From Candidatus Zhuqueibacterota bacterium (GTDB taxonomy: Bacteria; Zhuqueibacterota; Zhuqueibacteria; Residuimicrobiales; Oceaniaggregativiventaceae), in the NCBI GenBank assembly GCA_014728115.1, contig WJME01000045.1:120775-184774 (forward strand): a stretch of 64,000 bases of DNA, read 5' to 3'. Position numbers and translations under genes: made by a program. The notes below the pieces were generated by a model. It searched no databases, had not been told where the DNA came from, and worked only from the letters and a program-made list of their open reading frames with translations. How positions within the stretch are numbered: the first letter of the stretch is position 1; each line of letters begins with the position of its first letter. Below, piece after piece: positions 4,218 to 38,163 of the stretch.

Positions 4218-5039
4218 TTATGGGTTTTGCTGTATAAACTCGTTATGGGAAATGCGGGTCATACCGGATCTATCCACTTTGACATTTGCCACTTGGCCGG
4301 ACTGACCAGGTAAGCCCAAGTTTTGATCATCCAAAGATATTCTCAAACCGCCCCCATTACCCAATTTCAAATAAAATGGAGAGTGACTTTCCCAGGACTT
4401 TACATCCCCAGGATAAAAAATCGCTTCATCAGCAAGTGAATCCTGAAAAACAATCCTTACCCAGGTTGTTTCTATTGCAGTAGCTCTCAAAATATGTTCT
4501 TGCTTTTGAAACCCCTTTAACTCAACATCAGGCTGTTGCTTTTCAACGGGTTTCTCTGCGCTGTCGGGCACGGAACGTGTGGCGTTATCGTGCATTTCCA
4601 TTGACTCGAATGGAAATGTCTGATTTTTTTGATCATCAGAAGGACATTTTAGGATCAACATCACGACCATTACCAGCAATAAAATCGCCACCATGATCAA
4701 AGGCCTGAAAAACCATAAAATAAATTTAAATTCATTGCTTTTTTGTTCTGATAGAGTCTGCTCTTGCTGATTTTTTTCATCCCTTTCTTTTGCCTTTTTT
4801 TCCAGGGCATCATTCAAACGATTTGCCATCACATCTGGATTGAGTCCCAGTTGTTCGGCAAACGTTTTTAAAAATGCTCTCACATATACAACCGGCAAAA
4901 AATGGAAATTTCCCTCCTCGAGTTTTTGCAGGTAGGAAATAGAAATTTTTGTCTGAGCGGAAATTTCCTCCAAACTAAAATTCTTTGCTAGACGTTGCTC
5001 CCGCAATTCGTGAGCGATTTTGTTGAGTTCATTTTCCAA
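4218..5039 (-). CDS. rodZ: RodZ-like cytoskeleton protein (XRE HTH + TM + C-terminal DUF4115-like domain)
   Basis: N-terminal HTH 'LEEISAQTKISISYLQKLEEG', single TM, Pro/Gln-rich linker, C-terminal beta domain. Confidence 0.6.
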   Translation of the reverse strand: MENELNKIAHELREQRLAKNFSLEEISAQTKISISYLQKLEEGNFHFLPVVYVRAFLKTFAEQLGLNPDVMANRLNDALEKKAKERDEKNQQEQTLSEQKSNEFKFILWFFRPLIMVAILLLVMVVMLILKCPSDDQKNQTFPFESMEMHDNATRSVPDSAEKPVEKQQPDVELKGFQKQEHILRATAIETTWVRIVFQDSLADEAIFYPGDVKSWESHSPFYLKLGNGGGLRISLDDQNLGLPGQSGQVANVKVDRSGMTRISHNEFIQQNP

Positions 5040-20204: not shown

Positions 20205-20582
20205 AAATGAATTTGTTTGTAATCTCCTCCCGCAAAAATTTCCTTCAAAATTGTATCTACAAACAATAAGCGCTACAATATTGCATGAAACATGCATCTC
20301 TGTCATGGATCGACTTGCTTGAAAATCTTTATAAAACGAGAAAATGCAGAAATCCCGCCAGCTCCCTCCATGGATATACCCTCCCTTTGGCAATGCACGA
20401 TAAAAAAATGCAGAACTGAGTTTATCCACAACCTTGCCCGCAACGAATCAGCCAAGTTTCCCACAATAATGTATGTACAACATGGTGATACAACAATAAT
20501 GTGAGAAATTTGGCTGCTTCACGGCAAACGAATAAACACTCAAGCGCAAATAAAACAAACACTTGGACCGACGCCTTCTTAA

Positions 20583-20598
20583 TGGTATATCTTTTGCT
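20583..20598 (+). promoter_or_regulatory. Candidate sigma-54 (-24/-12) promoter TGGTAT-N-TTGCT upstream of glnK
   Basis: GG(20584-85)-N10-GC(20596-97) in the context TGGTATATCTTTTGCT, about 55 nt upstream of the glnK ATG. Confidence 0.4.
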
Positions 20599-22483: not shown

Positions 22484-22566
22484 GGATTTTGAATTCTCCC
22501 GAATCTTGTCTATCTTGTCAAATATCCGTGCATCTGTCAGTTCAATTTTCAACCAGAGGCATCTCC

Positions 22567-24222
22567 TTGAAGCAAAAAAATTTCCTGGCCATAATCGATG
22601 CTATCGGTCCATTTTTTAATTCTTATCACCCGGAAAAAACAGTCAATTGGTCAAAAATCGACTTTAGTCGGTTTGAGCGCAATAAAAATCTCGACCCCAA
22701 ACGCGTTGACAAGCTCTATACTTTTTTCGAGTCATTTTGTAAAACAGTGTCTCACATGGGTTATAATGCTTTATCACTCGATGATCTCGCCCACCTCTGT
22801 ATTTTTAAATTTTATCCCAGAAAACTAGAGAAAAAAATCGCAGCCTATCAAAAAATGTATGAAAAGCTCTTTGCGATTGCCCGATCCTATCATCTTGATA
22901 TTTATATAAACACCGACATTTTCTTTCTCAATGAATCGATTAAAAAACAACTCTCAAGATCGAATTCCACTGACTTGATTTACGAGGCATGCAGGCAGGG
23001 GTTGACCCATTTCAATATTTCTGGAATTATCCTTCGCATTGGTGAATCAGATGGCATCGATGTAAGGGGAGATTTTCAAAGTGAGCTATTGCTAAAGACT
23101 CCCAGGCAAACGAATCGCCTCTTGAAACAGCTATTACCGCTTTTCGAAGAGCAGCAAAAACATCTCATTTTTCGAACATGGACCGTCGGCGCCCATCCTA
23201 TCGGAGATTTGATGTGGAATGAAAAAACCTTTGATCGCACGTTTGCCAATATTGATAGCCCCTCCCTAATCATTTCCATGAAATATAGTGACACCGATTT
23301 TTTCAATCATGTGGCACTCAATCCGCTATTTTTTCATAAAAAATGGAAAAAAATAATAGAGTTGCAAACCCGGCGGGAACGGGAGGGATTTGGAGAATTT
23401 CCTTATTATGTAGGTCATCAATATGAACAGCTTGCAACGGAACTCCAGGATTGCGATTCTCTGGTCGGCATCTCGGTTTGGTGCCAAACCGGTGGATGGT
23501 CGCGCTGGCATAATATTACCTTTTTATCAAACTCTTCTATTTATAATGAGCTGAATACCTATGCAACACTGGAAATTTTTAAACATAATATAAATGCTAA
23601 AAAGGCACTCAAAACCTATATCCCTGATAAATCTCATCGAAAATTCATTCTCAAATTTACCGAATTGTTCGATCAATTGTTATATATTAAAGGATTCTCG
23701 GACAGACCCTTTTATTTTAAAAGAGTTCGAATTCCACCTCTTTTATGGGTCTACTGGGACCATATCACGATCAATCCGCTCATGATCCTTTTGTTGAGGC
23801 ATGTTTCTGCTGAGAAAAATATGGTAAAAAAGCCAGACATCAAAAATCTGAAAAAACTCGGAAAAAAAGCAGAGCTAAAACACCTCGACTATTATCTGGA
23901 TACGCTCGAATTATTAAGAGTTTGTCGTAAAGCTCTCGATCGCCAATATATGACCCAAAAGTTGTCCAAAAAGATTGCACGATATCACGTAAAATATCCA
24001 GATTCTTTTCAAACCAGATTGAATTTTAGCACGAATTCTTACAAAGGTGCACATCTTTTACTCAGACTTGCCTTAAGGTCAAGGGCGAAATACAGATGGC
24101 AGGATTACCTTCTCTTGAGTTCTTTTGTAAATCTTTTATTTCGAATTATCATTTCATTCTATAGAAAAGACATGCCTAAATTTGTGGGCAAACAAGCAAT
24201 GAAATTGGACTCTATTCTGTAA
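22567..24222 (+). CDS. Hypothetical protein (about 550 aa), possible glycoside-hydrolase-like TIM-barrel; start uncertain
   Basis: Long ORF with protein-like composition; the track's TTG 22489 abuts the terminator and lacks an RBS; candidates are TTG 22567 (weak GAGG) or the first ATG at 22756. Confidence 0.45.
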   Translation: MKQKNFLAIIDAIGPFFNSYHPEKTVNWSKIDFSRFERNKNLDPKRVDKLYTFFESFCKTVSHMGYNALSLDDLAHLCIFKFYPRKLEKKIAAYQKMYEKLFAIARSYHLDIYINTDIFFLNESIKKQLSRSNSTDLIYEACRQGLTHFNISGIILRIGESDGIDVRGDFQSELLLKTPRQTNRLLKQLLPLFEEQQKHLIFRTWTVGAHPIGDLMWNEKTFDRTFANIDSPSLIISMKYSDTDFFNHVALNPLFFHKKWKKIIELQTRREREGFGEFPYYVGHQYEQLATELQDCDSLVGISVWCQTGGWSRWHNITFLSNSSIYNELNTYATLEIFKHNINAKKALKTYIPDKSHRKFILKFTELFDQLLYIKGFSDRPFYFKRVRIPPLLWVYWDHITINPLMILLLRHVSAEKNMVKKPDIKNLKKLGKKAELKHLDYYLDTLELLRVCRKALDRQYMTQKLSKKIARYHVKYPDSFQTRLNFSTNSYKGAHLLLRLALRSRAKYRWQDYLLLSSFVNLLFRIIISFYRKDMPKFVGKQAMKLDSIL

Positions 24223-24232
24223 GGAGATTGTG

Positions 24233-24436
24233 ATGGAATGCAACAAGGAAAAAAATTTGACACGCTGTAATTGTACCTATGATCCCTGTGCCCGCAAGGG
24301 AGTATGCTGTGAATGTCTGCAGTATCACCTGCAAGCCCGGGAGCTGCCTGCATGCGTCTTTCCAGACCATGTTGAGCGAACGTACAATCGCTCATTCGAA
24401 AAATTCGCTCAATTGGTCACGAAAAACCAGATCTAG
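24233..24436 (+). CDS. Small cysteine-rich protein (CxC-x5-C-x5-CCxC), putative metal-binding
   Basis: AAGGAG RBS 7 nt upstream of ATG 24233; 8 Cys in 67 aa ('RCNCTYDPCARKGVCCECLQYH'). Confidence 0.45.
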   Translation: MECNKEKNLTRCNCTYDPCARKGVCCECLQYHLQARELPACVFPDHVERTYNRSFEKFAQLVTKNQI

Positions 24437-24440
24437 TACT

Positions 24441-25826
24441 TCACGTCCCGGGCTGAAATTGCTCAGCCCGTAAGCCATGACTCTGCATTTTTTGCTTGAA
24501 ATTTTTTCTGTCCATATCTGCCATTTGTGCAGCATGGCTTATATTACCTTTTGCCGCCACCAAAAGATCTTGAATATATGATCTTTCAAAAGCCTTTTTT
24601 GCCTCGCGAAAAGCAAGCCTGGTTACCAAATGGTCAGCATCAGGAGGTAAGGACGCTTTGTGATTCAAAACACTTTTGAATGTTATCTGTTCTTCGTCCT
24701 CCAGTATCAATGCGCGCTCAATTAACGCTTCGAGTTCACGGATATTGTATGGAAACGAATAAGAGATGAGCCTGTCCATCCCCTTTTTTGAGATCGATCG
24801 TCGTTCTTGTTTTAAACGGGCGCATGTCGTTTTCATAATGACACTTGCCAGACCGGGGATGTCTTCTTTACGCTCTCGTAACGGGGGAATCCGAATCGGA
24901 AAAATATTTAGCCGACTAAACAAATCTCTGCGAAATTGATTTTTACTGACCATTTCTTCCAAATCCCTGTTTGTCGCAGCAATGATCCGCACATCGGTCT
25001 TGAGTACTTTATCGCCACCAAGGCGCTCAAAAGTCTGATCCTGAAGAAACCTGAGCAAGTTGGGCTGCAAGTCCAATGGCAATTCGCCAATTTCATCGAT
25101 AAACAGAGTCGAACCGTTTGCCCGTTCCAACAATCCAATTCGTCGTTTAACAGCACCGCTATACGCTCCCCTCTCGGCTCCGAAAAAGTCGCTTTCGATC
25201 AGATTCGGATTCATCTGAGCAACATTTGCGACAACCATATTTCGATCAGAACGCAAGCTGTTATGATGTATCGCCTGAGCAAGTCGATTTTTACCGCTCC
25301 CAGTCTCTCCATACAATAAAACGGTTGTATCACTTTTTGCCACCCGCTTGGCGAGTTCGAGAGTTTTTTGCATCGCTGAACTTGAATTGCTCAAGGTGTC
25401 AAAATGAAATTCGTTATGATCTTTTTCTCTTTGTAAATTTTGTTCCAGTGAAAGATTGAATTTTTGCAGTGTGATTTCAATTCTGGGTTTGAGATATTCA
25501 AACGTCTCGTGCTTTTCAATAAAATCAAATGCGCCCATTTGCAATGCCCGGCTGATATATTCAGACGTTACATGAGCGGTTAAAACGATAACACAAATTT
25601 CCGGGTAATCACGATGAATAACATCCAAAACCTCATATCCATTCATCCCGGGCATCATCAGGTCCAAGAGTACCAACCGATACTCCTGATTTGCCAAAAG
25701 TTTCAGAGCATCATGCCCTGATGGTACCCCTAATGCCCGGAAACCATCATCTTTAAGATAGCGCACAATTTGCTCAAGAGTATCTTGATCATCGTCAACG
25801 ACCAAGATCTGGGGATCCTGTATCAT
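24441..25826 (-). CDS. Sigma-54-dependent response regulator (REC - AAA+ bEBP - Fis-type HTH), NtrC family
   Basis: REC 'ILVVDDD...DLMMPGMNG', Walker A '[11 protein letters not shown]', sigma-54 contact loop '[10 protein letters not shown]', C-terminal HTH. Confidence 0.85.
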
Positions 25827-25835
25827 ATCGTTCCT

Positions 25836-26234
25836 TTAATCGATAACTTGTGAATTCGCAGATAACATCTTTTCCACCAGGACACTGAGCTTGGGCCAAA
25901 AAGATAAATCCATGATCAATGTCTCGTCAGCACCCAAAAAACAGGCATCCAATTCCTGGAGTGTGGCACTGGTAACAAGGATAGGAGCATGATTTATTTT
26001 TTGTAAACCAGGGATAAAATCAGATGCAGATTTTTCCCCTTGAGGTTCCTTTTTTAGATGATAGTCAATGATCACAAGATCATATTTTTGTCGAACAACC
26101 ATTTGTTCTGCTTCCGTACCGGTGAGCGCCGTGTCTACATGATAACCGTCCGAGCAAAGCCAACGAGCGATCTGCGACAACATGGCTGGTTCATCATTGA
26201 TGACCAACAACTTTTGATTTTTTTCCATAACCAC
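25836..26234 (-). CDS. Stand-alone response regulator receiver domain protein
   Basis: 132 aa, 'LLVINDEP...DLVIIDYHL'. Confidence 0.75.
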   Translation of the reverse strand: MVMEKNQKLLVINDEPAMLSQIARWLCSDGYHVDTALTGTEAEQMVVRQKYDLVIIDYHLKKEPQGEKSASDFIPGLQKINHAPILVTSATLQELDACFLGADETLIMDLSFWPKLSVLVEKMLSANSQVID

Positions 26235-26258
26235 ACCTCACACATGAAGACTTTAAAT

Positions 26259-29200
26259 TTACTCACCCTTGAATTTCATAACGATTCTGGTTCCCACTCC
26301 TAGCTCACTCATTAAGGTTATACTTCCAGAATGATCATGTTCAACAATTCTTTTACAAATAGCCAAACCCAGCCCAGAACCTGTTGTTTTTGTCGACGTA
26401 AAAGGCTTCCATACCTTGTCAATGAATTGCGGATCAATGCCCTCTCCCGAATCCCGGACAGTAATGATATGCTGAGAATCATCCATGGCCCCCTCGATGA
26501 TCAATTCTCCCCCTTTTGGCATGGAATCAAAAGCATTCATAATCAGATTAAGAAACACTCTTTTCATTCGGTTACGATCCCATTTCAGAGAATATTGCAA
26601 TGTCTCATAGTCGATTTTTAATTCAATTTTTCGTCTACGAGCCTGGCTTGTGACAAAATAAACGCTTTCCTTAATCAAATCAGCCACTCGAGTGAGCTCC
26701 AGGTTTGGAGGGGCTTGTTGGGACCGGCGGGCAAGGTCATTAGTCATCCTTTCGATGCGGTCAACGTATTTTTGCATTTTTGTCAGCGAATCCATTACTA
26801 GAGTCATATCGAGTTCGGATTTACGCTTTTTTCTAAGCAACCAGTGAATTTCTCCGGCGATCAAAGACGAGGAGGTTCGAATATCATGCGAAATCCCAGC
26901 CAAGGTTTCACCGATTACAGAGACCTCCAGAGCCTGGGTCAAATTGAATTGCGATTCTATCAAACTTGCGGACAATCGAGCGTTCTCGATAGCTGCTCCG
27001 GCCTGGCTCGCCAGACCTTTTAATATTTCCAGTTCTCGTGTTCCGAAATCATTCTCTTTAAAGCTCTCTGCATTCAACACCCCAATAAACTTGTCGTGAA
27101 AAAGAATGGGGACGCAGACAGCTGATGCAACATTCCGATGCATAGAAAAATAGTTCGGATCTTCATTTACATTGTTGCACAAATAATGGCGTTTCTCCCG
27201 AACAACCCAGCCAGACATACCCTTGTTCACGTCAATCGTCGTACCGATAAACTGGTCAGGGTTGTCTAACCCTTTGATAACCTGTAGCTTTAAAAATTGA
27301 CCACTCTCATCTATCAACTGCAAATATACAAATCGTTGATACGGATCGATAGCATTTAATGCCTCCCGAATAATGGTTTCTAATACCTGATCGAGTTCCA
27401 GGGTCGAACTTATTTCCAGACCCGCGGTATTCAACGCCTGCAAGTGTTTTAATCTGACATCGCATAATTCGCCAACTTTGGCAGCGACAGCAGCAGAGTC
27501 TGCCAGGACTTGAAGTAAACCAATATCCTGGTCACTAAATGCATTGACCCGAGTGCTTTCAATATCAATGACCCCAATCAAATCTGTTCTGAACATCAAG
27601 GGTACGGCAAGCTCTGATCGGATTTTAGGGTACAGTTCGAGATAATCCTCTTCTCCTTCCACATCGGGTATATATCGGTATTTGCCTTTACGAGCCACCC
27701 AGGTTACCAGGCTTTTTTCATTTAAACGGATTTTGAATCCCAAAAAATCCTTTGCAAAGGCTTCGCCAGAGGCAGCCCTGATTTCAAGCATGTGTTTGTT
27801 TTCATCCTTGAGCAAAACAAATGAGGCCTTGTTACCTTGCCCGACAACATTGAGGGCAGCTTTGGAAATCATGTCCAAAATTTCCTGCAGACTCATGTCT
27901 CTGCCCAAGGCCTCACCGATCTCCTTTAGGGTGATCACTTGTCGGGTTTTTTCTTCTGCCAATTCATACAAGTACATGTTATGAAGCGCCATGGCAGCCT
28001 GCTCGGCAAGAATCAATATCCAGGATTTCTGTTGGGAAGACAAATCCAGATTTCCTGGTAACCCAATATTCAGAGCCCCCAAAACTTGTCCCATTGCAAC
28101 GAGAGGAATTCCTAACTCGACATTCACGCCTTGCCAAGACGGTATTAAATCGTCTTTTGAGACCAAATGATTAACGGTTGTCATTTGTTTTCGTTGCATG
28201 GTCAGTCCAGCACAACAATTTTCGCTCTCCGGATCAGTCAATACCAGATCCGTATTATAGTCATCCGGAAACCGAAACGCCCACATTTGCTTACCCACGG
28301 GTCGGTAGGTAAGAAATATATATTGTGAAGTTGAGATATCCGACACTGTATTGACAATTTGATCGAAAATAAAATCCAATCCTGTTAGATTTGTCACTTT
28401 TCTCGATAAATTTATGATTGCTTCCAGATCAACATAGGTCTTTTGCACATGTTCATAATGCAAAACATTTTGAATGGTAACAGCCGCATGAGATGCAAAA
28501 ATCGTGAGTATAGACTGCTGAATAGCGGATAAAGTAGACAAGTCGGGCCAATAGATATTTAAAACACCAATGACTTGTCCCATTACCTTCAAGGGTAAGC
28601 TTGACAGTGCAGAGACCTCATTTGCTCGATCTGGATTCAGGATAGCGATCTCTTTTGCGAACGAATCCCAGTGCATCGCTGTTAGAAACCGACTCGCCCC
28701 GATTTTTGCGACCCAGCCGGACAATCCATCACCCACTTTTTGTATATAACCTAAAGTAGCTTTTGGGCTTAACCCTTCAAAAGCTGCCATTCTCAATACT
28801 TGCTTTTCTTTATCCAGAACAAGGATATGACATGCAACTATAGGGCTAAAGATTTGCTGAATAGCATCAATAATAGCACGATAAACACTTTGTGGATCTG
28901 TTTGTTGTGTGATGAGGGCGGTACGATCACCTAACCGTCCCACAAGTGAATCAATCATTTTTCGCTTTTGCAGGGCCTGTTCATAACACGTTTTACTGAG
29001 CTCATATTCTTTGAATCGGTAAAAGATCTCGGCTCGCTTTTCAAAAGAAAAATTGTTTTGCAAAATAGCGGCGTAAATAGAGTTCCTCATTTTCCACTTT
29101 TGGTTACTTTGTTCCAGTAAACCAAGAAAGTACAGACGATTCCAATGAACATCATCGGGAGGTTTTTGCACGGTATGGTGATCCATTATTTGCGCGAGTC

Positions 29201-30095
29201 GTTGACTCAACTCTATATCCCTTTCGACGATCCGCATAGATTCCTGGAGTGATATTTCCTCCCCCTTTATCATATTGTCGATGGTTGTCTGAATCTTTTG
29301 GCAGGTGAGTTCAAAGGGATGAGCTGAATGATGAAAAGCATGAAAGCATATTTTTTGAATTAAATAAAGCATGCCAGATGTAGATTCACACAAGAGTCGA
29401 ATCACACCACTTTCCATGGGAAAATCCATTTGACCGCATATTCTATTCAGCCATCGCTCAATGTCGTCATTTTGCAAATCCTTTACTCTGATCATGGATA
29501 GATGATCGATAAGAGGATTATGCGATGTGGTGTCTGGGGCTTGCAAGTCCATAGCCCCACTCAAAATCGTACAAAAACTATTCAATTCATGGTCAATATC
29601 ACGCTCGGCATAAATGGATGCTAAAATGCGAAAAAAGCGATGCAAAAAAGCTGGTGGCAAATATTCCATTCCATCAAAGACTAAAATAGGCTTTTCATTA
29701 TTATCGAATCCCTTCAATACTTTCCGTAAACATTCGAGAAATTCATGATCACTGCCAAATTTCGCGGGTAATGGAAAAGAGCTGGATTGATTCGGAGAGT
29801 GTATGATTTGCAAAAGGCTGGAATAGAAATGTGAAAAGGAAGCCTTGTCCAGATGTTGAACTCTGATAAATTTTATGCGATTTTCCTGTTTCTTATTTTT
29901 GAGCTCATGATAGAACTGTAACAATAAAGTGGTTTTTCCGACTTTGCGAGGCCCTGTGATCGCAAACCATTGACCTGAATAAACACCACGGATCATTTTC
30001 TCTATGAGATCTGTTCTTTTAATCATAACGGAACGATGATCCAAAGAGTTCAGAGGACCTTGATAATGAAAAGGATTTTGAGAGGATAACGTCAT
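26259..30095 (-). CDS. Hybrid P-loop NTPase (ATPase_2/STAND-like) - multi-GAF - histidine kinase, 1,278 aa
   Basis: Walker A 'GPRKVGKTTLL', Walker B-like 'ILVFDGMEYL'; at least three GAF-like segments; HisKA H-box 'GISHDIRT', N-box 'NLIMNAFDSM', G-boxes 'DSGEGI'/'GSGLGLAICKRIV'. Confidence 0.8.
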   Translation of the reverse strand: MTLSSQNPFHYQGPLNSLDHRSVMIKRTDLIEKMIRGVYSGQWFAITGPRKVGKTTLLLQFYHELKNKKQENRIKFIRVQHLDKASFSHFYSSLLQIIHSPNQSSSFPLPAKFGSDHEFLECLRKVLKGFDNNEKPILVFDGMEYLPPAFLHRFFRILASIYAERDIDHELNSFCTILSGAMDLQAPDTTSHNPLIDHLSMIRVKDLQNDDIERWLNRICGQMDFPMESGVIRLLCESTSGMLYLIQKICFHAFHHSAHPFELTCQKIQTTIDNMIKGEEISLQESMRIVERDIELSQRLAQIMDHHTVQKPPDDVHWNRLYFLGLLEQSNQKWKMRNSIYAAILQNNFSFEKRAEIFYRFKEYELSKTCYEQALQKRKMIDSLVGRLGDRTALITQQTDPQSVYRAIIDAIQQIFSPIVACHILVLDKEKQVLRMAAFEGLSPKATLGYIQKVGDGLSGWVAKIGASRFLTAMHWDSFAKEIAILNPDRANEVSALSSLPLKVMGQVIGVLNIYWPDLSTLSAIQQSILTIFASHAAVTIQNVLHYEHVQKTYVDLEAIINLSRKVTNLTGLDFIFDQIVNTVSDISTSQYIFLTYRPVGKQMWAFRFPDDYNTDLVLTDPESENCCAGLTMQRKQMTTVNHLVSKDDLIPSWQGVNVELGIPLVAMGQVLGALNIGLPGNLDLSSQQKSWILILAEQAAMALHNMYLYELAEEKTRQVITLKEIGEALGRDMSLQEILDMISKAALNVVGQGNKASFVLLKDENKHMLEIRAASGEAFAKDFLGFKIRLNEKSLVTWVARKGKYRYIPDVEGEEDYLELYPKIRSELAVPLMFRTDLIGVIDIESTRVNAFSDQDIGLLQVLADSAAVAAKVGELCDVRLKHLQALNTAGLEISSTLELDQVLETIIREALNAIDPYQRFVYLQLIDESGQFLKLQVIKGLDNPDQFIGTTIDVNKGMSGWVVREKRHYLCNNVNEDPNYFSMHRNVASAVCVPILFHDKFIGVLNAESFKENDFGTRELEILKGLASQAGAAIENARLSASLIESQFNLTQALEVSVIGETLAGISHDIRTSSSLIAGEIHWLLRKKRKSELDMTLVMDSLTKMQKYVDRIERMTNDLARRSQQAPPNLELTRVADLIKESVYFVTSQARRRKIELKIDYETLQYSLKWDRNRMKRVFLNLIMNAFDSMPKGGELIIEGAMDDSQHIITVRDSGEGIDPQFIDKVWKPFTSTKTTGSGLGLAICKRIVEHDHSGSITLMSELGVGTRIVMKFKGE

Positions 30096-30502
30096 AATTC
30101 CAGATACTTTACTATAGCTTGTAATACCACCTCGGGATCTTCGGGTTTATTAAAATAGTCTATCACATTTAGCCTTCGACAGGCTTGTTCGACCTGAACA
30201 TCACTCCGTGCGGTTAAAATAAGCACCGGAGTATCAGATGGACAATTTTCGATTTTGCCGTTGCGAATCATTTTTAGTAATAAAAGTCCTACTTTACTGG
30301 CATCTATTTTTGAAAAAACCCCATCGCCCGCAGGGAACATGATGTCCAGGCAAACCAAATCAATCTCTCTAGTCGAAAGATATTCTATAGCCGAGTCACC
30401 ATCAGGGGCAATAAAGCACTCGACCGGTAAATCCGATAACCGGATGACGAGTCCATCAGAAAAATCGATCTCATCCTCTATAAAGAGTATTTGTTTGGCC
30501 AT
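30092..30502 (-). CDS. Stand-alone response regulator receiver domain protein
   Basis: 'ILFIEDE...LVCLDIMFP'; start set at the internal Met 'MAKQILF' (30502), which abuts the stop of the upstream kinase instead of overlapping it. Confidence 0.7.
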   Translation of the reverse strand: MAKQILFIEDEIDFSDGLVIRLSDLPVECFIAPDGDSAIEYLSTREIDLVCLDIMFPAGDGVFSKIDASKVGLLLLKMIRNGKIENCPSDTPVLILTARSDVQVEQACRRLNVIDYFNKPEDPEVVLQAIVKYLEL

Positions 30503-30503
30503 A

Positions 30504-33500
30504 TCAATTCTCCTTGGGAATTTTGGGCAGGATAATCGTAAAGATGGTATCATATCCCTCATAATCCCTTTGACGTTGCGGGTCATCAAAAAATGGTGTA
30601 CTTGCCACTTTAATTTGGCCACCGTGCGCCTGAACGATTTCCTTGCAAATTTTTAGGCCCAGGCCTGTGCCTGGGATATAACGAGTTTTATCATGGACTG
30701 TACCCCGATTGAATCCTTTAAAAATAGTGTCAAAGTTTTGTTCGGGAATACCCTGACCTTTATCCCATATTGAAATATTTATTCGCGTACCATCATCGAA
30801 CCCTTCAACTTTGACATAACGATTAGCATGTGAATATTTTACTGCATTATCCAGTATATTTGATATCACGTGTTCAATTTTTTGTCGATCACAGCGAAAA
30901 GCAGGCAGACGTTTAACATTGTCTCGTATAACGATGGAAATACCTCGTTTCAGGGCTCGGCTCTTGTATGCCTGAGCAGCGCTTTCAATAATATCTTGTA
31001 TTTTTATCGTTTCAAAAAAGTATCCTTCTGCACCCTGACTCAATGAAGGTAATAACAAGGCATTTTGCATCTGCCTCTTGGCGCGCATGATTTCATCGGT
31101 AATCGTGACAAGATACTGATTGATTTGATCATCACTTGAATAGTGTTTATCGACGAACCATCGTAATCCGCTAATTTGACTCAGAATATTATGCAGAGGA
31201 CTTTTAAACTCATGAGCAGTTTCTGCCAGCGTATTCTGCAAATTTTCGATCATGGACTTGTCGCGGGCATTCCGAATGGCAATTGCAGACTGACTGGCAA
31301 AGGTATCCAGGATACGCATTCGACGTTGCAAAACTTTTACGTCTCCATGTACCAAATCCTGCATATCGGAAAGATCTATTTGTAACGTGCCAATGGCCTC
31401 ATTATTTACCAGCAATGGAATGATATACTGGGAGATGATCCCGGCTTTTTGCACGGCTCGTTTGTCGCAAGAAGGATCATTAATACAATCGCTGCTCAGT
31501 TTTGGTTTTTTATTCAGAACAACCTGGCCAAGAATATCATTATGATTGATGCGTCGTTTGGTTTCTGCCTTGATTCTCTGCCAGTTTTCTCCCATGGCAT
31601 ATCTTCCACAAATCCATTGTCGCTTATCATCCACCAATGAGACCATACCCTTTGCATATCCGATAGACGTTAAGGTTTGAAAAATATGATCGATAGCTTC
31701 GTCTTCTCTTTGTGAAGACTGTAAATAGATACTGGCCTGATTGAGCGCCTCGAGTTGAGCTTCCAGAGTACTTCGCAGATCGATATCCATTTTCAATTTT
31801 TGAACAAGCTCGAGTTGTTCCTCTTTCATGTTCACCTGTTCTATACCGATGCCAACCAGATTGACCACTTTACGAAGAATTGTAATTTCATCTTGATCGA
31901 TATTTTCTTTATGATGCTTGTAATATCCTGTTTCCAAAGTTCCAAGAGCTTCTTCCCGCGCCAATATTGGCATTATTACGCGTACTAAATTTTCGTGTCC
32001 AAACTTGTTATAAATTTCAGGATCCAATCGTTCATCCCATCCTGACAATTTTATCATTCTTTTATTCTTGACAACCCAGACTTGAATGTCCTGACTGTTC
32101 ATTGAATGCCATGCGCTTTCCTTCCATTCATCAGGGATATTGCGGCTCTTTACGGTACCTATCATACCCGAGGATTTTTTAACCAGCGAAATGGTGGCGT
32201 AATCGAACCCCATGATTTGTGTCACTGCATCCAAAATACCTTCCAAAATCTGATCAAAATCCAAAGTTTTTGTAATAACCTCGAGTACCATTTCCAAAGC
32301 AGAAAGCTCTCGTATGCTTTGTTCCTGTTTCGAGATCAGCCGTACATTATCGATAGCAGTGGCTGCTTGGTTCGCTAGGGTTGTCAAAAAATATGTGTCC
32401 CGCTCAGAAAAGGCATTCTTTTTATCGCTTGTCACACTAATGATACCGATCACCTGCATGTCATTATGAGAATTAAAGCGTGATTGAATAGGAACCACAA
32501 TTTGAGATTGAACATCATCAAACAGCTTATAATACCTATCCGGCGCCTCAGACAAAACATCATTGGATAGGTAGGGAATGCGATTCTTGAAAACATAACC
32601 AGACATCCCTCTGCTTGTCGGACAGGGCTCTATCTCACCTTCATCACCGCGAACAGAACTGATCGCTCTGACTTTTAATGAATCTGTGGCAGGATCATAA
32701 AGCCGTAAATATACCCGGTTGCTGTTGGGAATCTTGCGGCATTCGGCAACAATCTTGTCAAATACCTTTTTTTCATCATGTGTACTGAGTAGAGAGTCTC
32801 CGACATTGATTAAGGCTTTTATCTCTCTGAGATCTTTTGCCAAGGCAATGGCACGCATAGGTTTACCTTGCCTGTCCATTATGATTCTGGCATTTAAGCT
32901 CACAGGAATAGCAATATCATTTCTGGTCTTGAAAAGCGTTTCATGATTGGTCAGACTATGATCACGGGAGCTTCTCAAAGTGGAAAACACCCGATCCGCT
33001 TTTTGTCTCGCCGTAGAAACATGGTCTGAAGCAAAATAATCCTCCACGCGATGTCCTATCAGATCTCCGAACCACTCTTTTGCACATTCATTCATGTATT
33101 CTATCACCCCGCGGGCATCGGTGATGACGGCAAAATCAGGGATATTCTCAATTAATAGTTCATAGTTCTTTAAATAAGATCTCAAATCGGCATCGCTTAA
33201 TATTTTTTGCAATTGGGTGGCTAAAATTCTAATAAAAAACTCGTCAGATTCCGGACTAAACCCTAATGATTGGTGAGCCTGGCCTTCAGCATCTTTTTTG
33301 TTATAAGTAATCAAGAGCCCGTTTAATGATTGGTCCGAGTGTAATAAAGGACAAACCAACTCGGAGAAAAGCTCCCGAGAGGGCAAAAACTTTGCGCCTT
33401 CATGACGATTTTTTATAGCCGGATGATCCCACAGCGTCTTCCCATGGGCATTAAAGACCTTTTTTTGAAACGCAAGATACCCTGTTAGGCCTTTTCCCTT

Positions 33501-34478
33501 TTGATTATGAATATTCAAACGCACCCGATAGTGTTTGAACCCACTTTGAATACCATCATTAAAATAACTAATCTGATGAACCAGTCTGTTTTCTTCGACA
33601 GAGAAAAAGCTGCAACATTCTGAATCCAAAACAAGCGCAGTATGTTTAACGAGAAAGTTAATCTTTTCTTTCAGTGAATAGTTCTCATCGATAGATAACA
33701 GGTGTTTGCTGATGTCACTCAATATCGACAGTTTTTTTAACATACGCCCTTTACGATCCAGTTCGGTGGCCAGCGTGGACACATAATGACTCAATTCATC
33801 TATTTGGATCGACCGGTTTTTTTGTGCACATAAATAAACACCAGCAAGATGCGCGATCATCTTTGCCAAAGGTAACCGTTCTTTACAAAGCAATCGATCC
33901 AAACTAAAGAAAACAATGCCGTTGAGTTGACCCTGCTCGAAAAAAGGAAAAGCCTGATAATAGGTACCCGACAAAAGCTGTAAAAATGGATCATCACTGC
34001 TTTTGGAGAATTGTCCGTGTACAATCTCACCATCGAGTGACTTGTGACCCAATTCACGCATAAAGTCTGATTCTCTCCACAACAAACCAGGCTGATCATC
34101 TCTGTTGGAATGGTATAGAATATCAAGACCTGAATGATTGGGTCCTGTAGTCAAAATGATCATATCTGAAAAAGTGAACAGACTTGCAGCAGTTTTGAAT
34201 ATTTCCTGCGCCATGTGTTCATGAAGAGTGAGATTTTGAAGAGATTCCTGCAAAGATAACAGACGTTCAATAGATGCTTGAGGGATCATCGGGTACCCCC
34301 GCTTCTGATAATGGACAATAGCATTCGGATCAGGGCAGGGGATCGTACCGGGCAGGTACATAAGATTTGAAAAGAGTAGGGTTGCATAAAAACCGTTGTT
34401 TGAGAGTGAGACAAAAATTGCACCCGTCAAAATCCACGGCCCATAAAACAAACTATTTCTTTTTTCTGTTTTATGCAA
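30504..34478 (-). CDS. Membrane-anchored multi-GAF/PAS sensor histidine kinase, 1,324 aa (TTG start)
   Basis: N-terminal TM helix; repeated GAF/PAS-like modules; H-box 'HEFKSPLHNI', N-box 'NILDNAVKY', G-boxes 'DKGQGIP'/'GTGLGLKICKEIV'. Confidence 0.8.
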   Translation of the reverse strand: MHKTEKRNSLFYGPWILTGAIFVSLSNNGFYATLLFSNLMYLPGTIPCPDPNAIVHYQKRGYPMIPQASIERLLSLQESLQNLTLHEHMAQEIFKTAASLFTFSDMIILTTGPNHSGLDILYHSNRDDQPGLLWRESDFMRELGHKSLDGEIVHGQFSKSSDDPFLQLLSGTYYQAFPFFEQGQLNGIVFFSLDRLLCKERLPLAKMIAHLAGVYLCAQKNRSIQIDELSHYVSTLATELDRKGRMLKKLSILSDISKHLLSIDENYSLKEKINFLVKHTALVLDSECCSFFSVEENRLVHQISYFNDGIQSGFKHYRVRLNIHNQKGKGLTGYLAFQKKVFNAHGKTLWDHPAIKNRHEGAKFLPSRELFSELVCPLLHSDQSLNGLLITYNKKDAEGQAHQSLGFSPESDEFFIRILATQLQKILSDADLRSYLKNYELLIENIPDFAVITDARGVIEYMNECAKEWFGDLIGHRVEDYFASDHVSTARQKADRVFSTLRSSRDHSLTNHETLFKTRNDIAIPVSLNARIIMDRQGKPMRAIALAKDLREIKALINVGDSLLSTHDEKKVFDKIVAECRKIPNSNRVYLRLYDPATDSLKVRAISSVRGDEGEIEPCPTSRGMSGYVFKNRIPYLSNDVLSEAPDRYYKLFDDVQSQIVVPIQSRFNSHNDMQVIGIISVTSDKKNAFSERDTYFLTTLANQAATAIDNVRLISKQEQSIRELSALEMVLEVITKTLDFDQILEGILDAVTQIMGFDYATISLVKKSSGMIGTVKSRNIPDEWKESAWHSMNSQDIQVWVVKNKRMIKLSGWDERLDPEIYNKFGHENLVRVIMPILAREEALGTLETGYYKHHKENIDQDEITILRKVVNLVGIGIEQVNMKEEQLELVQKLKMDIDLRSTLEAQLEALNQASIYLQSSQREDEAIDHIFQTLTSIGYAKGMVSLVDDKRQWICGRYAMGENWQRIKAETKRRINHNDILGQVVLNKKPKLSSDCINDPSCDKRAVQKAGIISQYIIPLLVNNEAIGTLQIDLSDMQDLVHGDVKVLQRRMRILDTFASQSAIAIRNARDKSMIENLQNTLAETAHEFKSPLHNILSQISGLRWFVDKHYSSDDQINQYLVTITDEIMRAKRQMQNALLLPSLSQGAEGYFFETIKIQDIIESAAQAYKSRALKRGISIVIRDNVKRLPAFRCDRQKIEHVISNILDNAVKYSHANRYVKVEGFDDGTRINISIWDKGQGIPEQNFDTIFKGFNRGTVHDKTRYIPGTGLGLKICKEIVQAHGGQIKVASTPFFDDPQRQRDYEGYDTIFTIILPKIPKEN

Positions 34479-34552
34479 CCCTTTTTACCCCATCAAAAAT
34501 CGCCACAATTGTGACTCAGACCAGCAGGTGTCGGTTGGAATAACCGGACGCT

Positions 34553-34693
34553 TTACCACACATTAAAAAAGTCGGGGTAGCTGGCAACAAGGAACAATGC
34601 GGCTAAAAAACCCAAGACAAAAATAAAAAATGCCAGCTTGATCAAAGTCCAAATTGCATTGCTCACATTAAACAAGAATCCGATTATACCCAT
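34553..34693 (-). CDS. 46-aa hydrophobic membrane peptide (MGIIGFLFNVSNAIWTLIKLAFFIFVLGFLAALFLVASYPDFFNVW); below the ORF-track cutoff
   Basis: ATG at plus 34691-34693 preceded by 'aaagggggta' SD-like run; first gene after the candidate sigma-54 promoter; 75 nt upstream of the kinase. Confidence 0.45.
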   Translation of the reverse strand: MGIIGFLFNVSNAIWTLIKLAFFIFVLGFLAALFLVASYPDFFNVW

Positions 34694-34757
34694 GGTACCC
34701 CCTTTCTTGTGAAAATCAAGATTATGTGAGTACCTCTTTATCCTCTACAATGGGTAA

Positions 34758-34773
34758 AGCAAGTCGCATGCCA
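34758..34773 (-). promoter_or_regulatory. Candidate sigma-54 promoter TGGCAT-GCGAC-TTGCT driving the signalling operon
   Basis: Reverse complement of plus 34758-34773 = TGGCATGCGACTTGCT (GG-N10-GC); about 65 nt upstream of the small-peptide ATG. Confidence 0.45.
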
Positions 34774-35021
34774 AAGTCACAGGGAAGCGGATATTTGAAA
34801 AAAGCTATTGTTTTTATTAATATTATAATCTACATTGAATTGGTGATCCATCACACATAGCCGGGGCAAAAAAACCCCACATCGATAAATTTACCTCAGC
34901 GCAAGTGGGGTAAAAAAACACCAACACCCTTATACTGAAATGAGGATAAAACAGAGCCCAGAAACTGTTATAACAAATCGAGATTCTCTGATTACATTTA
35001 CAATGCTTCACAGGTTCTGCT

Positions 35022-36883: not shown

Positions 36884-37327
36884 ATGGGATTTTCGGAAAC
36901 AATGTTGCTCATCGCTCTGTTGCTGATCCTTTTGGATTTCTTTGTAGCAACAGATATTTTGACTCATGCGGCCTATATCATCATCAGTGTCTGGGTAGGC
37001 CTGATCATCGAGGCACACCTCTTTTATCGGATTTTGTTTGGAGTCCTGACTTGGTTTTCTGTTGTGCTTTTTCACTATTTGGTCTGGTCCAAGCTCTTGC
37101 ACCATTTTGTTGAAGAGTATATCATTCCTGACAGATATAAATCCAGCTATGAAACTCTTATCGGATCTTTTGGAAGAGTCAGGCACATTAATCATGCCCC
37201 AATGGTAGAGATTCATGATTCGTTATTCGAATATCGCTCAGAACACCCTTTAAAGGAAAATGCGCTTGTTAGAGTCATTGACTATCGCGAAGGAATCGTC
37301 AAGGTAGAACCCATAGACGAGGAATAA
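36884..37327 (+). CDS. NfeD-like membrane protein (short form; TM + OB-fold)
   Basis: Two or three TM helices then C-terminal beta domain; immediately upstream of an SPFH gene; AGGAG RBS. Confidence 0.7.
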   Translation: MGFSETMLLIALLLILLDFFVATDILTHAAYIIISVWVGLIIEAHLFYRILFGVLTWFSVVLFHYLVWSKLLHHFVEEYIIPDRYKSSYETLIGSFGRVRHINHAPMVEIHDSLFEYRSEHPLKENALVRVIDYREGIVKVEPIDEE

Positions 37328-37329
37328 CA

Positions 37330-38163
37330 ATGTCGATTATTTTTACTGTTCCCCAATCTCACTGCGTAATTATTGAACGATTTGGCAAATTTTCATCAAT
37401 CAAGCACCAGGGACTTGCATTTAAATTACCTATCATCGATGCTATCCGTAGAGTGAGTGAAGACTGGGGTGATGTTGCCAACAAACGCGGATATCTCATA
37501 GAGCTTACAGAACAACAAAGTGATACAGGAAAGCGGATCTGTCAGACTCGAGATAATGTCACGGCGCGAATCGACTCTGTCATTTACTGGCAAATCCTGG
37601 ATCCTCGTGCGGCGCTGTATGAAGTGGACCATCTACCCATTTCCGTAGCAGATAGTGCATTGAATGCCCTGCGAGCTGAGGTGGGTAGCATGCCGCTGGA
37701 CAAACTGTTTAGCGATCGGGAACATTTGAACGAACTTATTGCGACCCACCTTCGCAAAACCACGCAAAAGTGGGGAATCATCATCAACCGGGTAGAGATT
37801 CAGGAAATTGAAACCGATACAGCCACCGTCGACTCTATGCGCCAGCAAATGGATGCAGAGCGAAAAAGCCGGGCCATGGTTCTCGAGGCAGAAGGTCAGG
37901 CGAAATCGATTCTCAGGATTGCCCAGGCAGAAAAACAGGCAGCGATTCTCAGAGCCGAAGGAGATGCCAAAGCCAAAACGATCATGGCTGAAGCAGAATC
38001 TCAATACCTGGAAAAATTGATGATGACCTTACCGGCCAAAGAAGCAGCAAGTATTCTTGTTGCACAAAAATATTTAGAAGGATTTAGAGAAATCAGCAAA
38101 AATGAGGCGGATAAGGTTTTCTTGCCCAATTCTTTCAAAGGACTATTTTCTATTGACACATAA
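37330..38163 (+). CDS. SPFH/band-7 (stomatin/prohibitin-like) protein
   Basis: 'VIIERFGKF...' SPFH core, coiled-coil Ala/Glu-rich C-terminus. Confidence 0.85.
   Translation: MSIIFTVPQSHCVIIERFGKFSSIKHQGLAFKLPIIDAIRRVSEDWGDVANKRGYLIELTEQQSDTGKRICQTRDNVTARIDSVIYWQILDPRAALYEVDHLPISVADSALNALRAEVGSMPLDKLFSDREHLNELIATHLRKTTQKWGIIINRVEIQEIETDTATVDSMRQQMDAERKSRAMVLEAEGQAKSILRIAQAEKQAAILRAEGDAKAKTIMAEAESQYLEKLMMTLPAKEAASILVAQKYLEGFREISKNEADKVFLPNSFKGLFSIDT

Follow-up and report, generated by a model that had tools for sequence, protein, structure and literature searches.

Organization of the gene cluster

The DNA analysed here is a 64-kb window (64,000 nt of contig WJME01000045.1), and positions 24441-34773 of its minus strand hold six co-oriented open reading frames (ORFs) headed by a sigma-54-type promoter element. 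An earlier note on the same DNA had described six genes here, and the ORF list places all of them exactly where it had them. They encode a small hydrophobic peptide (pep46), two large sensor histidine kinases (HK1 and HK2), two small receivers (RR1 and RR2) and an NtrC-family enhancer-binding protein (the activator). The cluster is real, conserved, unannotated and rare, and it is a new combination of well-known parts, not a new kind of system. Its gene order, which the earlier note did not recognise, matches no described system or curated family, with all NCBIfam equivalog cut-offs missed, and it is undescribed in the literature searched on KSB1 and sigma-54, on STAND/GAF/kinase proteins and on AAA_35, where nothing relevant was found. 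Clusters of at least four two-component genes are uncommon in general, with tetrads holding about 1.3-1.7% of such genes (PMC3018481). The features discussed below are as follows; L001 and L002 are close relatives of the window.

34758-34773, minus strand: promoter element of the sigma-54 -24/-12 type, TGGCATGCGACTTGCT, with GG at 34772-34771 and GC at 34760-34759
34553-34693, minus strand: pep46, a 46-aa hydrophobic peptide (MGIIGFLFNVSNAIWTLIKLAFFIFVLGFLAALFLVASYPDFFNVW), an ORF that is also called as a gene in L001 and L002
34290-34552, minus strand: spacer between pep46 and HK1, constrained and non-coding by comparison with L001
30504-34289, minus strand: HK1, a 1261-aa soluble sensor histidine kinase (Pfam, hhalign, start-codon argument)
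30092-30502, minus strand: RR1, a 136-aa single-domain receiver (Pfam, orthologue alignment)
26259-30095, minus strand: HK2, a 1278-aa NTPase-GAF4-histidine kinase (Pfam, AlphaFold model)
25836-26228, minus strand: RR2, a 130-aa atypical receiver (Pfam, fused homologues, alignment)
24441-25826, minus strand: the activator, an NtrC-family enhancer-binding protein of 461 aa (Pfam, orthologue alignment)
34774-35021, no strand assigned: divergent intergenic region upstream of the operon promoter (L001 comparison)
20583-20598, plus strand: second sigma-54-type element, TGGTATATCTTTTGCT, about 60 nt upstream of glnK-amt (L001 comparison)

Four of the junctions are tight: a 1-nt gap separates the HK1 stop codon from RR1, the RR1 and HK2 genes share 4 nt, and gaps of 30 nt and 9 nt then lead to RR2 and the activator.

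Kinases, receivers and activator

Every domain that had been read from the letters alone, including those of two GAF/PAS kinases of more than 1,250 aa, is supported by the Pfam search. HK2 consists of a nucleoside triphosphatase (NTPase) region matching AAA_35/AAA_22/AAA_14 (residues 34-345), four GAF domains (at about 399-542, 574-705, 734-871 and 899-1037), a weak HisKA match and HATPase_c. HK1 has the architecture (GAF?)-GAF-PAS-GAF-GAF-GAF-HisKA-HATPase_c, of which Pfam recognises the PAS domain (438-552 in ORF numbering), three GAF domains, HisKA and HATPase_c; in hhalign, the approximately 190 residues before PAS (about 185-374) are GAF-like at 94% and the first ~170 residues only possibly GAF-like at 39%. 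HATPase_c is matched at 6e-23 in HK1 and 2e-21 in HK2, and HisKA at 22.5 and 17.4 bits, both under the cut-off of 26.9. HK1 keeps the H-box histidine and the N, G1 and G2 boxes (AHEFKSPL, NILDNAVKYS, DKGQGI and GTGLGL), and HK2 has SHDIRT in its DHp domain (dimerization and histidine phosphotransfer) followed by NLIMNAFDS, DSGEGI and GSGLGL; judged by these profiles and motifs, both are genuine histidine kinases. A group of 1312-aa GAF kinases (P0006-P0012) was considered as a source of HK1 orthologues and rejected, as these are only generic relatives in unrelated two-gene loci, and the 46-aa neighbour of these kinases is likewise unrelated to pep46.

At the N-terminus of HK2 (residues ~1-350), a P-loop NTPase is combined with helical and winged-helix domains, and a helical linker comes next. 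Its Walker A (GPRKVGKT) and Walker B (ILVFDGME) motifs contain G53/K54 and D141/E144, which are invariant across the NTPase family. An AlphaFold model of the NTPase built from an alignment of eight family members reached a pLDDT of 85 and a pTM of 0.82 (pLDDT 39 from the single sequence), and its closest solved structures are CED-4 (18.0), plant NB-ARC (17.3) and Cdc6/Orc1 (17.1), with MalT and Avs lower. A sequence search of the PDB returned only P-loop and TPR fragments. In the model, the HK2 N-terminus is thus a STAND/Orc-Cdc6-like nucleotide-binding module by the structural definition.

Full-length relatives of HK2 are few, with three in a collection of 5.8 billion proteins (99, 88 and 85% identity), all of identical synteny. 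A HMMER search with NTPase residues 1-400 against 1.84 billion representatives gave 301 proteins at E <= 1e-3, and among the best 149 of these about 30 are NTPase-GAF(n)-kinase proteins. A C-terminal receiver is present in eight of the approximately 30; it is of the RR2 type in seven and of another type in one. When species-representative genome contigs, a collection from which the lineage is absent, were searched with the HK2 alignment, the matches were to generic kinases or Walker A motifs and none was an orthologue.

RR1 matches Response_reg (6e-13, Pfam), and the gene callers of three source assemblies agree on it. Its alignment with nine orthologues shows a canonical receiver with the acidic pair ED, the acceptor Asp (LDIMF), the Thr (LTA) and the Lys-Pro, together with an insertion after the acceptor Asp. 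RR2 matches Response_reg at 4e-9 over only profile positions 2-80 of 111. In RR2 and its fused homologues, N-D replaces D-D, the acceptor Asp (IIDYHL in RR2) and the Ser/Thr are kept, and the conserved Lys is absent; the homologues, too, align with just the first 80 of the 111 profile positions. Because the HK2 of most relatives carries a fused receiver that aligns with RR2 (at the C-terminus in L012, L014, L015, L016, L019 and P0059-P0066), RR2 is best described, from these alignments, as the detached receiver of a hybrid kinase.

The last gene was expected to encode a sigma-54 activator, and Pfam bears this out with Response_reg (1.4e-27), Sigma54_activat (5.1e-62, profile positions 3-167 of 168), AAA_lid_14 and a Fis-type helix-turn-helix (HTH) domain, HTH_8, at 22.4 bits against a cut-off of 22. 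GenBank has the same protein as MBD3374246.1, assigned to a candidate division KSB1 bacterium. Its receiver residues D11, D12, D55, T83 and K105 and its Walker A (GETGSGK) and Walker B (FIDEIG) motifs are invariant in seven orthologues. It reaches no NCBIfam equivalog cut-off, among NtrX, AtoC, NtrC, GlrR, LuxO and others, with scores against cut-offs of 338.6/600 for NtrX, 324/558.6 for ntrC (TIGR01818), 331/714 for AtoC and 276/800 for LuxO. By these scores the activator is a generic NtrC-family member, and the cluster is not NtrBC, NtrYX, AtoSC or LuxO at the equivalog level.

Conservation of the cassette

The gene order is kept in three close relatives of the window. Distant relatives were collected by a metagenome scan with the NTPase alignment, which gave 11 loci that were annotated by phmmer with the window domains as queries. 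The order HK1-RR1-HK2 recurs in eight of them (L010-L017), whose NTPases are 25-28% identical to that of the window, and the activator follows HK2 wherever the contig continues (L012, L014, L015 and L016). The L019 contig begins inside HK2, which has a fused receiver and is followed by the activator; wherever the C-terminus of HK2 is present in these distant loci, it carries a fused receiver of the RR2 type. The order is unannotated but not unique to the window, and its persistence in distantly related metagenomic loci marks it as a conserved cassette, as opposed to a chance grouping. The genes that flank the cassette in the window are not kept in the distant loci.

The two remaining loci, L018 and L020, have HK2, two small receivers and the activator and are without HK1-RR1. 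By this comparison, HK2 and the activator are the core of the system, and HK1-RR1 is an accessory pair. Sites upstream of HK2 in L018 and L020 that match the sigma-54 pattern with one mismatch were rejected as support, since they coincide with the sigma-70-type promoters TTGACA-N17-TATAAC and TTGACG-N16-TACACT. Exact sigma-54 sites do occur near the cassette in L012 and L018, where they stand before other genes.

Several further elements were observed around the distant cassettes. A conserved sigma-54-type element lies about 35-50 nt upstream of a small LysM-domain gene in L011 (3124-3139, one mismatch) and in L012 (4094-4109, exact; plus strand), 1.7-2.7 kb upstream of the cassette. In L018, two exact sigma-54 sites are situated immediately downstream of the activator gene. 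About 310 nt without a long ORF and then a strong intrinsic terminator (GAGCCCGCAG...CTGCGGGCTCTTTCT) come after the first of them, and this segment (L018 16186-16530, plus strand) is a candidate sigma-54-dependent small RNA. The second stands before three or four paralogous small proteins of 124-174 aa with a KW-x2-(R/K)GL motif (L018 16679-18390, plus strand), for which no known family was found; one of the proteins weakly matches a Sulfolobus virus coat protein C-terminal domain. In addition, a non-coding block of about 170 nt lies upstream of the cassette in L012 (~4690-4860), L011 (4077-4244) and L010 (532-671; plus strand). It starts with a TTGACA-N17-TATTAT promoter, contains a CACCCCGAC...GACGGGGTC stem, has no Rfam match and is 79-85% identical across the three loci with diverging flanks, and it is likewise a candidate small RNA. 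More generally, Rfam gave no match at gathering or E-value thresholds in the window, in the spacer and promoter region, or in L011, L012 and L018.

The putative operon promoter and the proposed signalling network

The near-consensus sigma-54 element that the earlier note had placed upstream of the first gene is present at 34758-34773 on the minus strand. TGGCATGCGACTTGCT has the GG at -24, the GC at -12, the exact spacing, near-consensus flanks and a co-oriented gene, as it lies 64 nt upstream of the pep46 ATG in the same orientation, and the predicted transcription start would be near 34748, giving a 5' untranslated region of about 55 nt. The 64-kb window contains no other exact match to TGGCAY-N5-TTGCW. 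Such a match is expected 0.16 times per window and occurs at least once in 14 of 100 shuffles, and by itself it is weak evidence, only weakly beyond chance; the argument is therefore carried by position, orientation and conservation. All 11 specified bases are kept in L001, a relative with 85-92% identity, and the element is retained in both L001 and L002, with a single change that falls in the N5 spacer. Three sites with GG and GC and at most one mismatch occur in the window, and two of the three are correctly placed before operons. No convincing sigma-70 -35/-10 pair was found upstream of pep46 on the minus strand.

The intergenic region further upstream (34774-35021) is 80% identical to L001 and contains invariant blocks, including a 44-bp A/T-rich block at about 34790-34835; the region is a candidate for activator binding or for an architectural role. 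A hairpin, ACCCCAC-N24-GTGGGGT followed by TTTTTT, is also found at 34868-34911 (minus strand), about 100 nt upstream of the sigma-54 element, with a stem that is kept and a loop that varies in L001; it is terminator-like, yet has no obvious gene upstream on the minus strand.

An even chance is given to the reading in which the cluster forms a cytoplasmic two-component network with several inputs, has a sigma-54 activator at its end and probably activates its own operon. HK2 would be controlled by the nucleotide state and oligomerisation of its NTPase module and by ligands bound to its GAF domains, which together would set its kinase activity, and it would pass phosphoryl groups to the receiver of the activator. 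RR2 would act as a competing phosphoryl sink or as a kinase modulator. HK1 and RR1 would provide a second input, with phosphorylated RR1 modulating HK2 or the activator through protein-protein contact. Once phosphorylated, the activator would form oligomers that remodel sigma-54 RNA polymerase at TGGCAT-N5-TTGCT (34758-34773). This promoter would drive expression of the 46-aa membrane peptide, and transcripts reading through the structured 263-nt spacer would include the signalling genes; the result would be positive feedback, which might be attenuated at the spacer. The pairing of HK2 with the activator and of HK1 with RR1 is suggested by kinase-core similarities, since the nearest NCBIfam families are AtoS/ZraS, whose partners are NtrC-family regulators, for HK2 and PhoR/WalK/PnpS for HK1, in matches far below the family cut-offs, and the closest receivers to RR1 are of the OmpR/PhoB family, again below the cut-offs.

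That the operon may control itself, as the earlier note proposed, is a reasonable hypothesis because a sigma-54-type promoter stands in front and an activator of the matching class is encoded by the last gene, but this self-promoter is seen only in close relatives. None of L010-L017 has a sigma-54 site directly upstream of HK1, so autoregulation cannot be called a conserved trait of the cassette. The idea of a branched phosphorelay fared less well. No histidine phosphotransfer (Hpt) family is among the Pfam matches of the six cluster proteins, so the cluster is not a classical His-Asp-His-Asp phosphorelay; moreover, RR2 is a detached hybrid-kinase receiver without the conserved Lys, and HK1-RR1 is an add-on that L018 and L020 lack.

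The absence of Hpt from the cluster and that of a sigma-54 site before HK1 in L010-L017 both weigh against the proposed network, and so do several other observations. The exact promoter match arises in 14% of shuffles, and rpoN is not among the larger ORFs of the 64-kb window. The sites upstream of HK2 in L018 and L020 overlap good sigma-70-type promoters. RR2, lacking the conserved Lys, may not be phosphorylated normally, and the partner assignment of the kinases is a lead and not a test, as all matches are below family cut-offs. Lastly, the 263-nt spacer with its terminator-like hairpin may uncouple pep46 from the kinase genes, and the sigma-54 contact loop of the activator is a double variant of the consensus; both points bear on the alternatives considered next.

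The peptide gene and the 263-nt spacer

pep46 is the first gene after the promoter and has a strong ribosome-binding site, AAAGGGGGTACC-ATG. It is 89% identical in aa sequence to its L001 counterpart with zero indels; the differences by codon position (5/2/5) are too few to serve as proof of coding. It has no Pfam or NCBIfam match, and no homologue was found in the distant loci upstream of HK1 (L010-L015).

The gap between pep46 and HK1 depends on the start codon of HK1. The mechanically called ORF begins at TTG 34478, 74 nt after the pep46 gene, but the differences from L001 in its first 63 codons are distributed 4/9/5 over the codon positions (79% aa and ~90% nt identity), as against 78/43/357 in the remaining 1261 codons (92% aa and 87% nt identity). 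An in-frame ATG at 34289 is preceded by GGGGGTACCCG (GGGGGT), mirroring the GGGGGTACC of pep46, and distant HK1 orthologues start within about 10-14 residues of it. The substitution pattern and the orthologue N-termini speak against a TTG-extended HK1 with a putative membrane anchor, which was rejected, and ATG 34289 is most likely the true start, giving HK1 at 30504-34289 and, as a consequence, a 263-nt non-coding spacer after pep46. Of the gaps of 0-75 nt claimed earlier, the four tight junctions hold, whereas the 74-nt gap rests on the doubtful TTG and is likely 263 nt. A single transcript, which had been called almost certain, would still fit the common orientation and the tight junctions, but it is less secure with a constrained spacer in between that contains a hairpin and an inverted repeat.

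The spacer is 82-89% identical to L001, on a par with coding sequence, compared with 59% for the glnK intergenic region of the same pair of genomes. Within it is a perfect 14-bp inverted repeat with arms 77 nt apart (34378-34391 and 34469-34482), for one of which there is an alternative 9-bp partner (34442-34450 with 34467-34475). A weak terminator-like hairpin at 34502-34515, followed by GATTTTTGAT, lies 38 nt after the pep46 stop codon. The spacer may be an RNA switch, an attenuator or a protein-binding site.

These features could be explained differently if the promoter mainly serves pep46 as a regulated output, and the kinase, receiver and activator genes are expressed separately, with the spacer terminating or attenuating most transcripts or holding its own promoter or operator, so that the regulators would simply lie beside their target. 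The constraint on a non-coding spacer, its repeat with an alternative partner and the hairpin with GATTTTTGAT after the pep46 stop are all in line with this explanation. The window and its close relatives share pep46, spacer and cluster-front promoter as a set that is seen nowhere else, and the exact sigma-54 sites of L018 precede genes other than signalling genes. On the other hand, the minus strand of the spacer showed no sigma-70-type promoter, the hairpin has only 5 pairs, of which one is broken in L001, and the spacer RNA folds only somewhat better than shuffles (z = -2.1, a modest value). The six genes also share one orientation, with tight junctions elsewhere. We regard separate expression as rather unlikely, though it is the strongest of the competing explanations.

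The glnK-amt neighbour and the choice of promoter

The second sigma-54 candidate that had been noted at glnK-amt is present at 20583-20598 (plus strand), where TGGTATATCTTTTGCT is a fully conserved island in an intergenic region otherwise 59% identical to L001. Two invariant ACAATAATGT repeats at 20463 and 20493, 30 nt apart, lie about 90-120 nt upstream of this element, and this segment (20463-20502, plus strand) is a candidate for activator binding in the control of nitrogen genes in KSB1. The window is enriched in ACAATAATGT (14 against 6.5 expected), but the third exact copy lies inside a gene. The glnK element is the best indirect evidence of sigma-54 use by the organism, and together with the intact sigma-54 interaction domain of the activator it argues that the organism has sigma-54. 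The glnK-amt operon itself continues at 22489-24436 (plus strand) with genes for a ~551-aa protein without a family match and a 67-aa DUF6485 protein, both kept in L001-L003; only 4 nt lie between the end of this operon and the stop codon of the activator gene, which converges on it.

A link of the cluster to glnK-amt, which had been raised earlier, gained no support beyond adjacency, as no upstream motif shared by the operon and glnK promoters was found and the adjacency is absent in the distant loci; a functional tie between glnK-amt and the activator is only a possibility. The same evidence bears on the explanation that the -24/-12 match in front of pep46 is fortuitous or served by another activator, that the operon has an ordinary promoter, and that the activator acts on unlinked targets, possibly nitrogen genes such as glnK-amt. 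The chance expectation of the match given above would allow this, as would the distant cassettes without a site upstream of HK1 and the sigma-70-like promoters before HK2 in L018 and L020. Moreover, the glnK element is the better conserved of the two and has repeated motifs upstream, and the top NCBIfam matches of the activator are NtrX, AtoC and NtrC. Nevertheless, all 11 promoter bases in front of pep46 are kept in L001, in the right place and orientation, no convincing sigma-70 pair competes with them, the two promoters have no motif in common, and the cut-offs of the nitrogen-regulator equivalogs are all missed widely. This explanation is accordingly judged distinctly improbable.

A last explanation is that the activator has lost productive contact with sigma-54 and acts as a sigma-70-type regulator or repressor, in the manner of NtrX, its top NCBIfam match, or Rhodobacter capsulatus NtrC. 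In place of GAFTGA, its loop has GAYSGA in the window, with two positions changed, and GAFSGA in L001, with one, compared with GAFTGA in four of five distant orthologues and GAFTDA in L019. We consider this explanation very unlikely, as the single variants GAYTGA (HrpS) and GAFSGA are reported to allow activation (PMC3105312, PMC6615313), Pfam covers the sigma-54 interaction domain from end to end (5e-62) and a sigma-54-type promoter fronts the operon, even though GAYSGA combines two changes and the forms reported as active have one.

A bolder form of the proposed network is that the cassette represents an undescribed family of systems in uncultured FCB-group bacteria, in which an NLR/Orc-like switch and a GAF array gate a kinase feeding a sigma-54 activator, and in which the lineage of the window has gained a sigma-54-driven peptide and a structured RNA leader as its regulated output and feedback valve. 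A decision module of the STAND type would then be coupled directly to two-component phosphotransfer. This form is somewhat doubtful, and we put it forward as a tentative suggestion.

Other features of the window

The neighbours of the cluster in the window include type IX secretion cargo proteins, which is consistent with an FCB-group organism. A pair of NfeD-like and Band_7 (stomatin-type) genes adjoins the operon at 36884-38163 (plus strand), followed by SMR transporter and ion-channel genes, in a synteny that is ordinary, yet kept in L001 and L002. No tRNAs were found in the window.

Comparison with known systems

Every part of the cluster comes from a well-understood class, and the concepts of two-component and sigma-54 regulation are left unchanged by it. 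What is new is the conserved, unannotated order of a kinase, a receiver, an NTPase-GAF kinase with its receiver fused or split, and an activator; the placing of a histidine kinase behind an Orc/Cdc6/NB-ARC-like NTPase, as in the approximately 30 proteins among the best 149 representatives of the 1.84-billion-protein library; and the occurrence of such a system in the candidate phylum KSB1, on whose regulation no work turned up in the literature searched. The conserved glnK element moreover provides a first handle on sigma-54 regulons in KSB1.

The closest general model is the NtrB/NtrC type (AtoS/AtoC, ZraS/ZraR and GlrK/GlrR), which the cluster resembles in an output protein made of receiver, sigma-54 AAA+ and Fis-HTH domains, in the AtoS/ZraS-like core of HK2 and in the -24/-12 promoter. 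It differs in having two kinases, two extra receivers, soluble GAF arrays, an N-terminal NTPase and the GAYSGA loop. In the Vibrio LuxN/LuxQ/CqsS-LuxU-LuxO circuit, several kinases converge on one sigma-54 activator. The proposed convergence of kinases on an NtrC-family activator and the hybrid-kinase receivers are alike by analogy, and the sigma-54 site, ~310-nt ORF-less stretch and terminator of L018 recall the Vibrio Qrr small RNAs. In contrast to the Vibrio circuit, the cluster lacks an Hpt protein such as LuxU, its kinases are cytoplasmic and not membrane receptors, and its activator scores 276 against the LuxO cut-off of 800.

The operon layout is also reminiscent of the 'four-component' RedCDEF system of Myxococcus xanthus, in which kinase and receiver genes alternate and single-domain receivers pass or drain phosphoryl groups (PMC2755868). 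This likeness is by analogy only, the relationship being limited to shared domains, and RedCDEF, unlike the cluster, has no DNA-binding or sigma-54 output and no NTPase.

Fusions of a P-loop NTPase with GAF domains and a kinase are known from Ser/Thr-kinase-AAA_16-GAF-histidine kinase proteins (P0010, P0024, P0026, P0034 and P0046), which are built like HK2 in this respect. They differ in that their NTPase is of another family, a protein kinase stands at the N-terminus, and the likeness is confined to the GAF and kinase regions at 18-43% query coverage. Compared with STAND and Orc/Cdc6-like ATPases (MalT, CED-4/Apaf-1, NLRs, PAB2304 and SSO1545), HK2 has a histidine kinase as effector and a GAF array as sensor, and its NTPase falls in Pfam AAA_35/AAA_22, with NACHT, nSTAND and AAA_16 below their cut-offs. 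If the NTPase truly gates the kinase, HK2 would be a tractable case, from bacteria, in which STAND-type switching is coupled to phosphotransfer.

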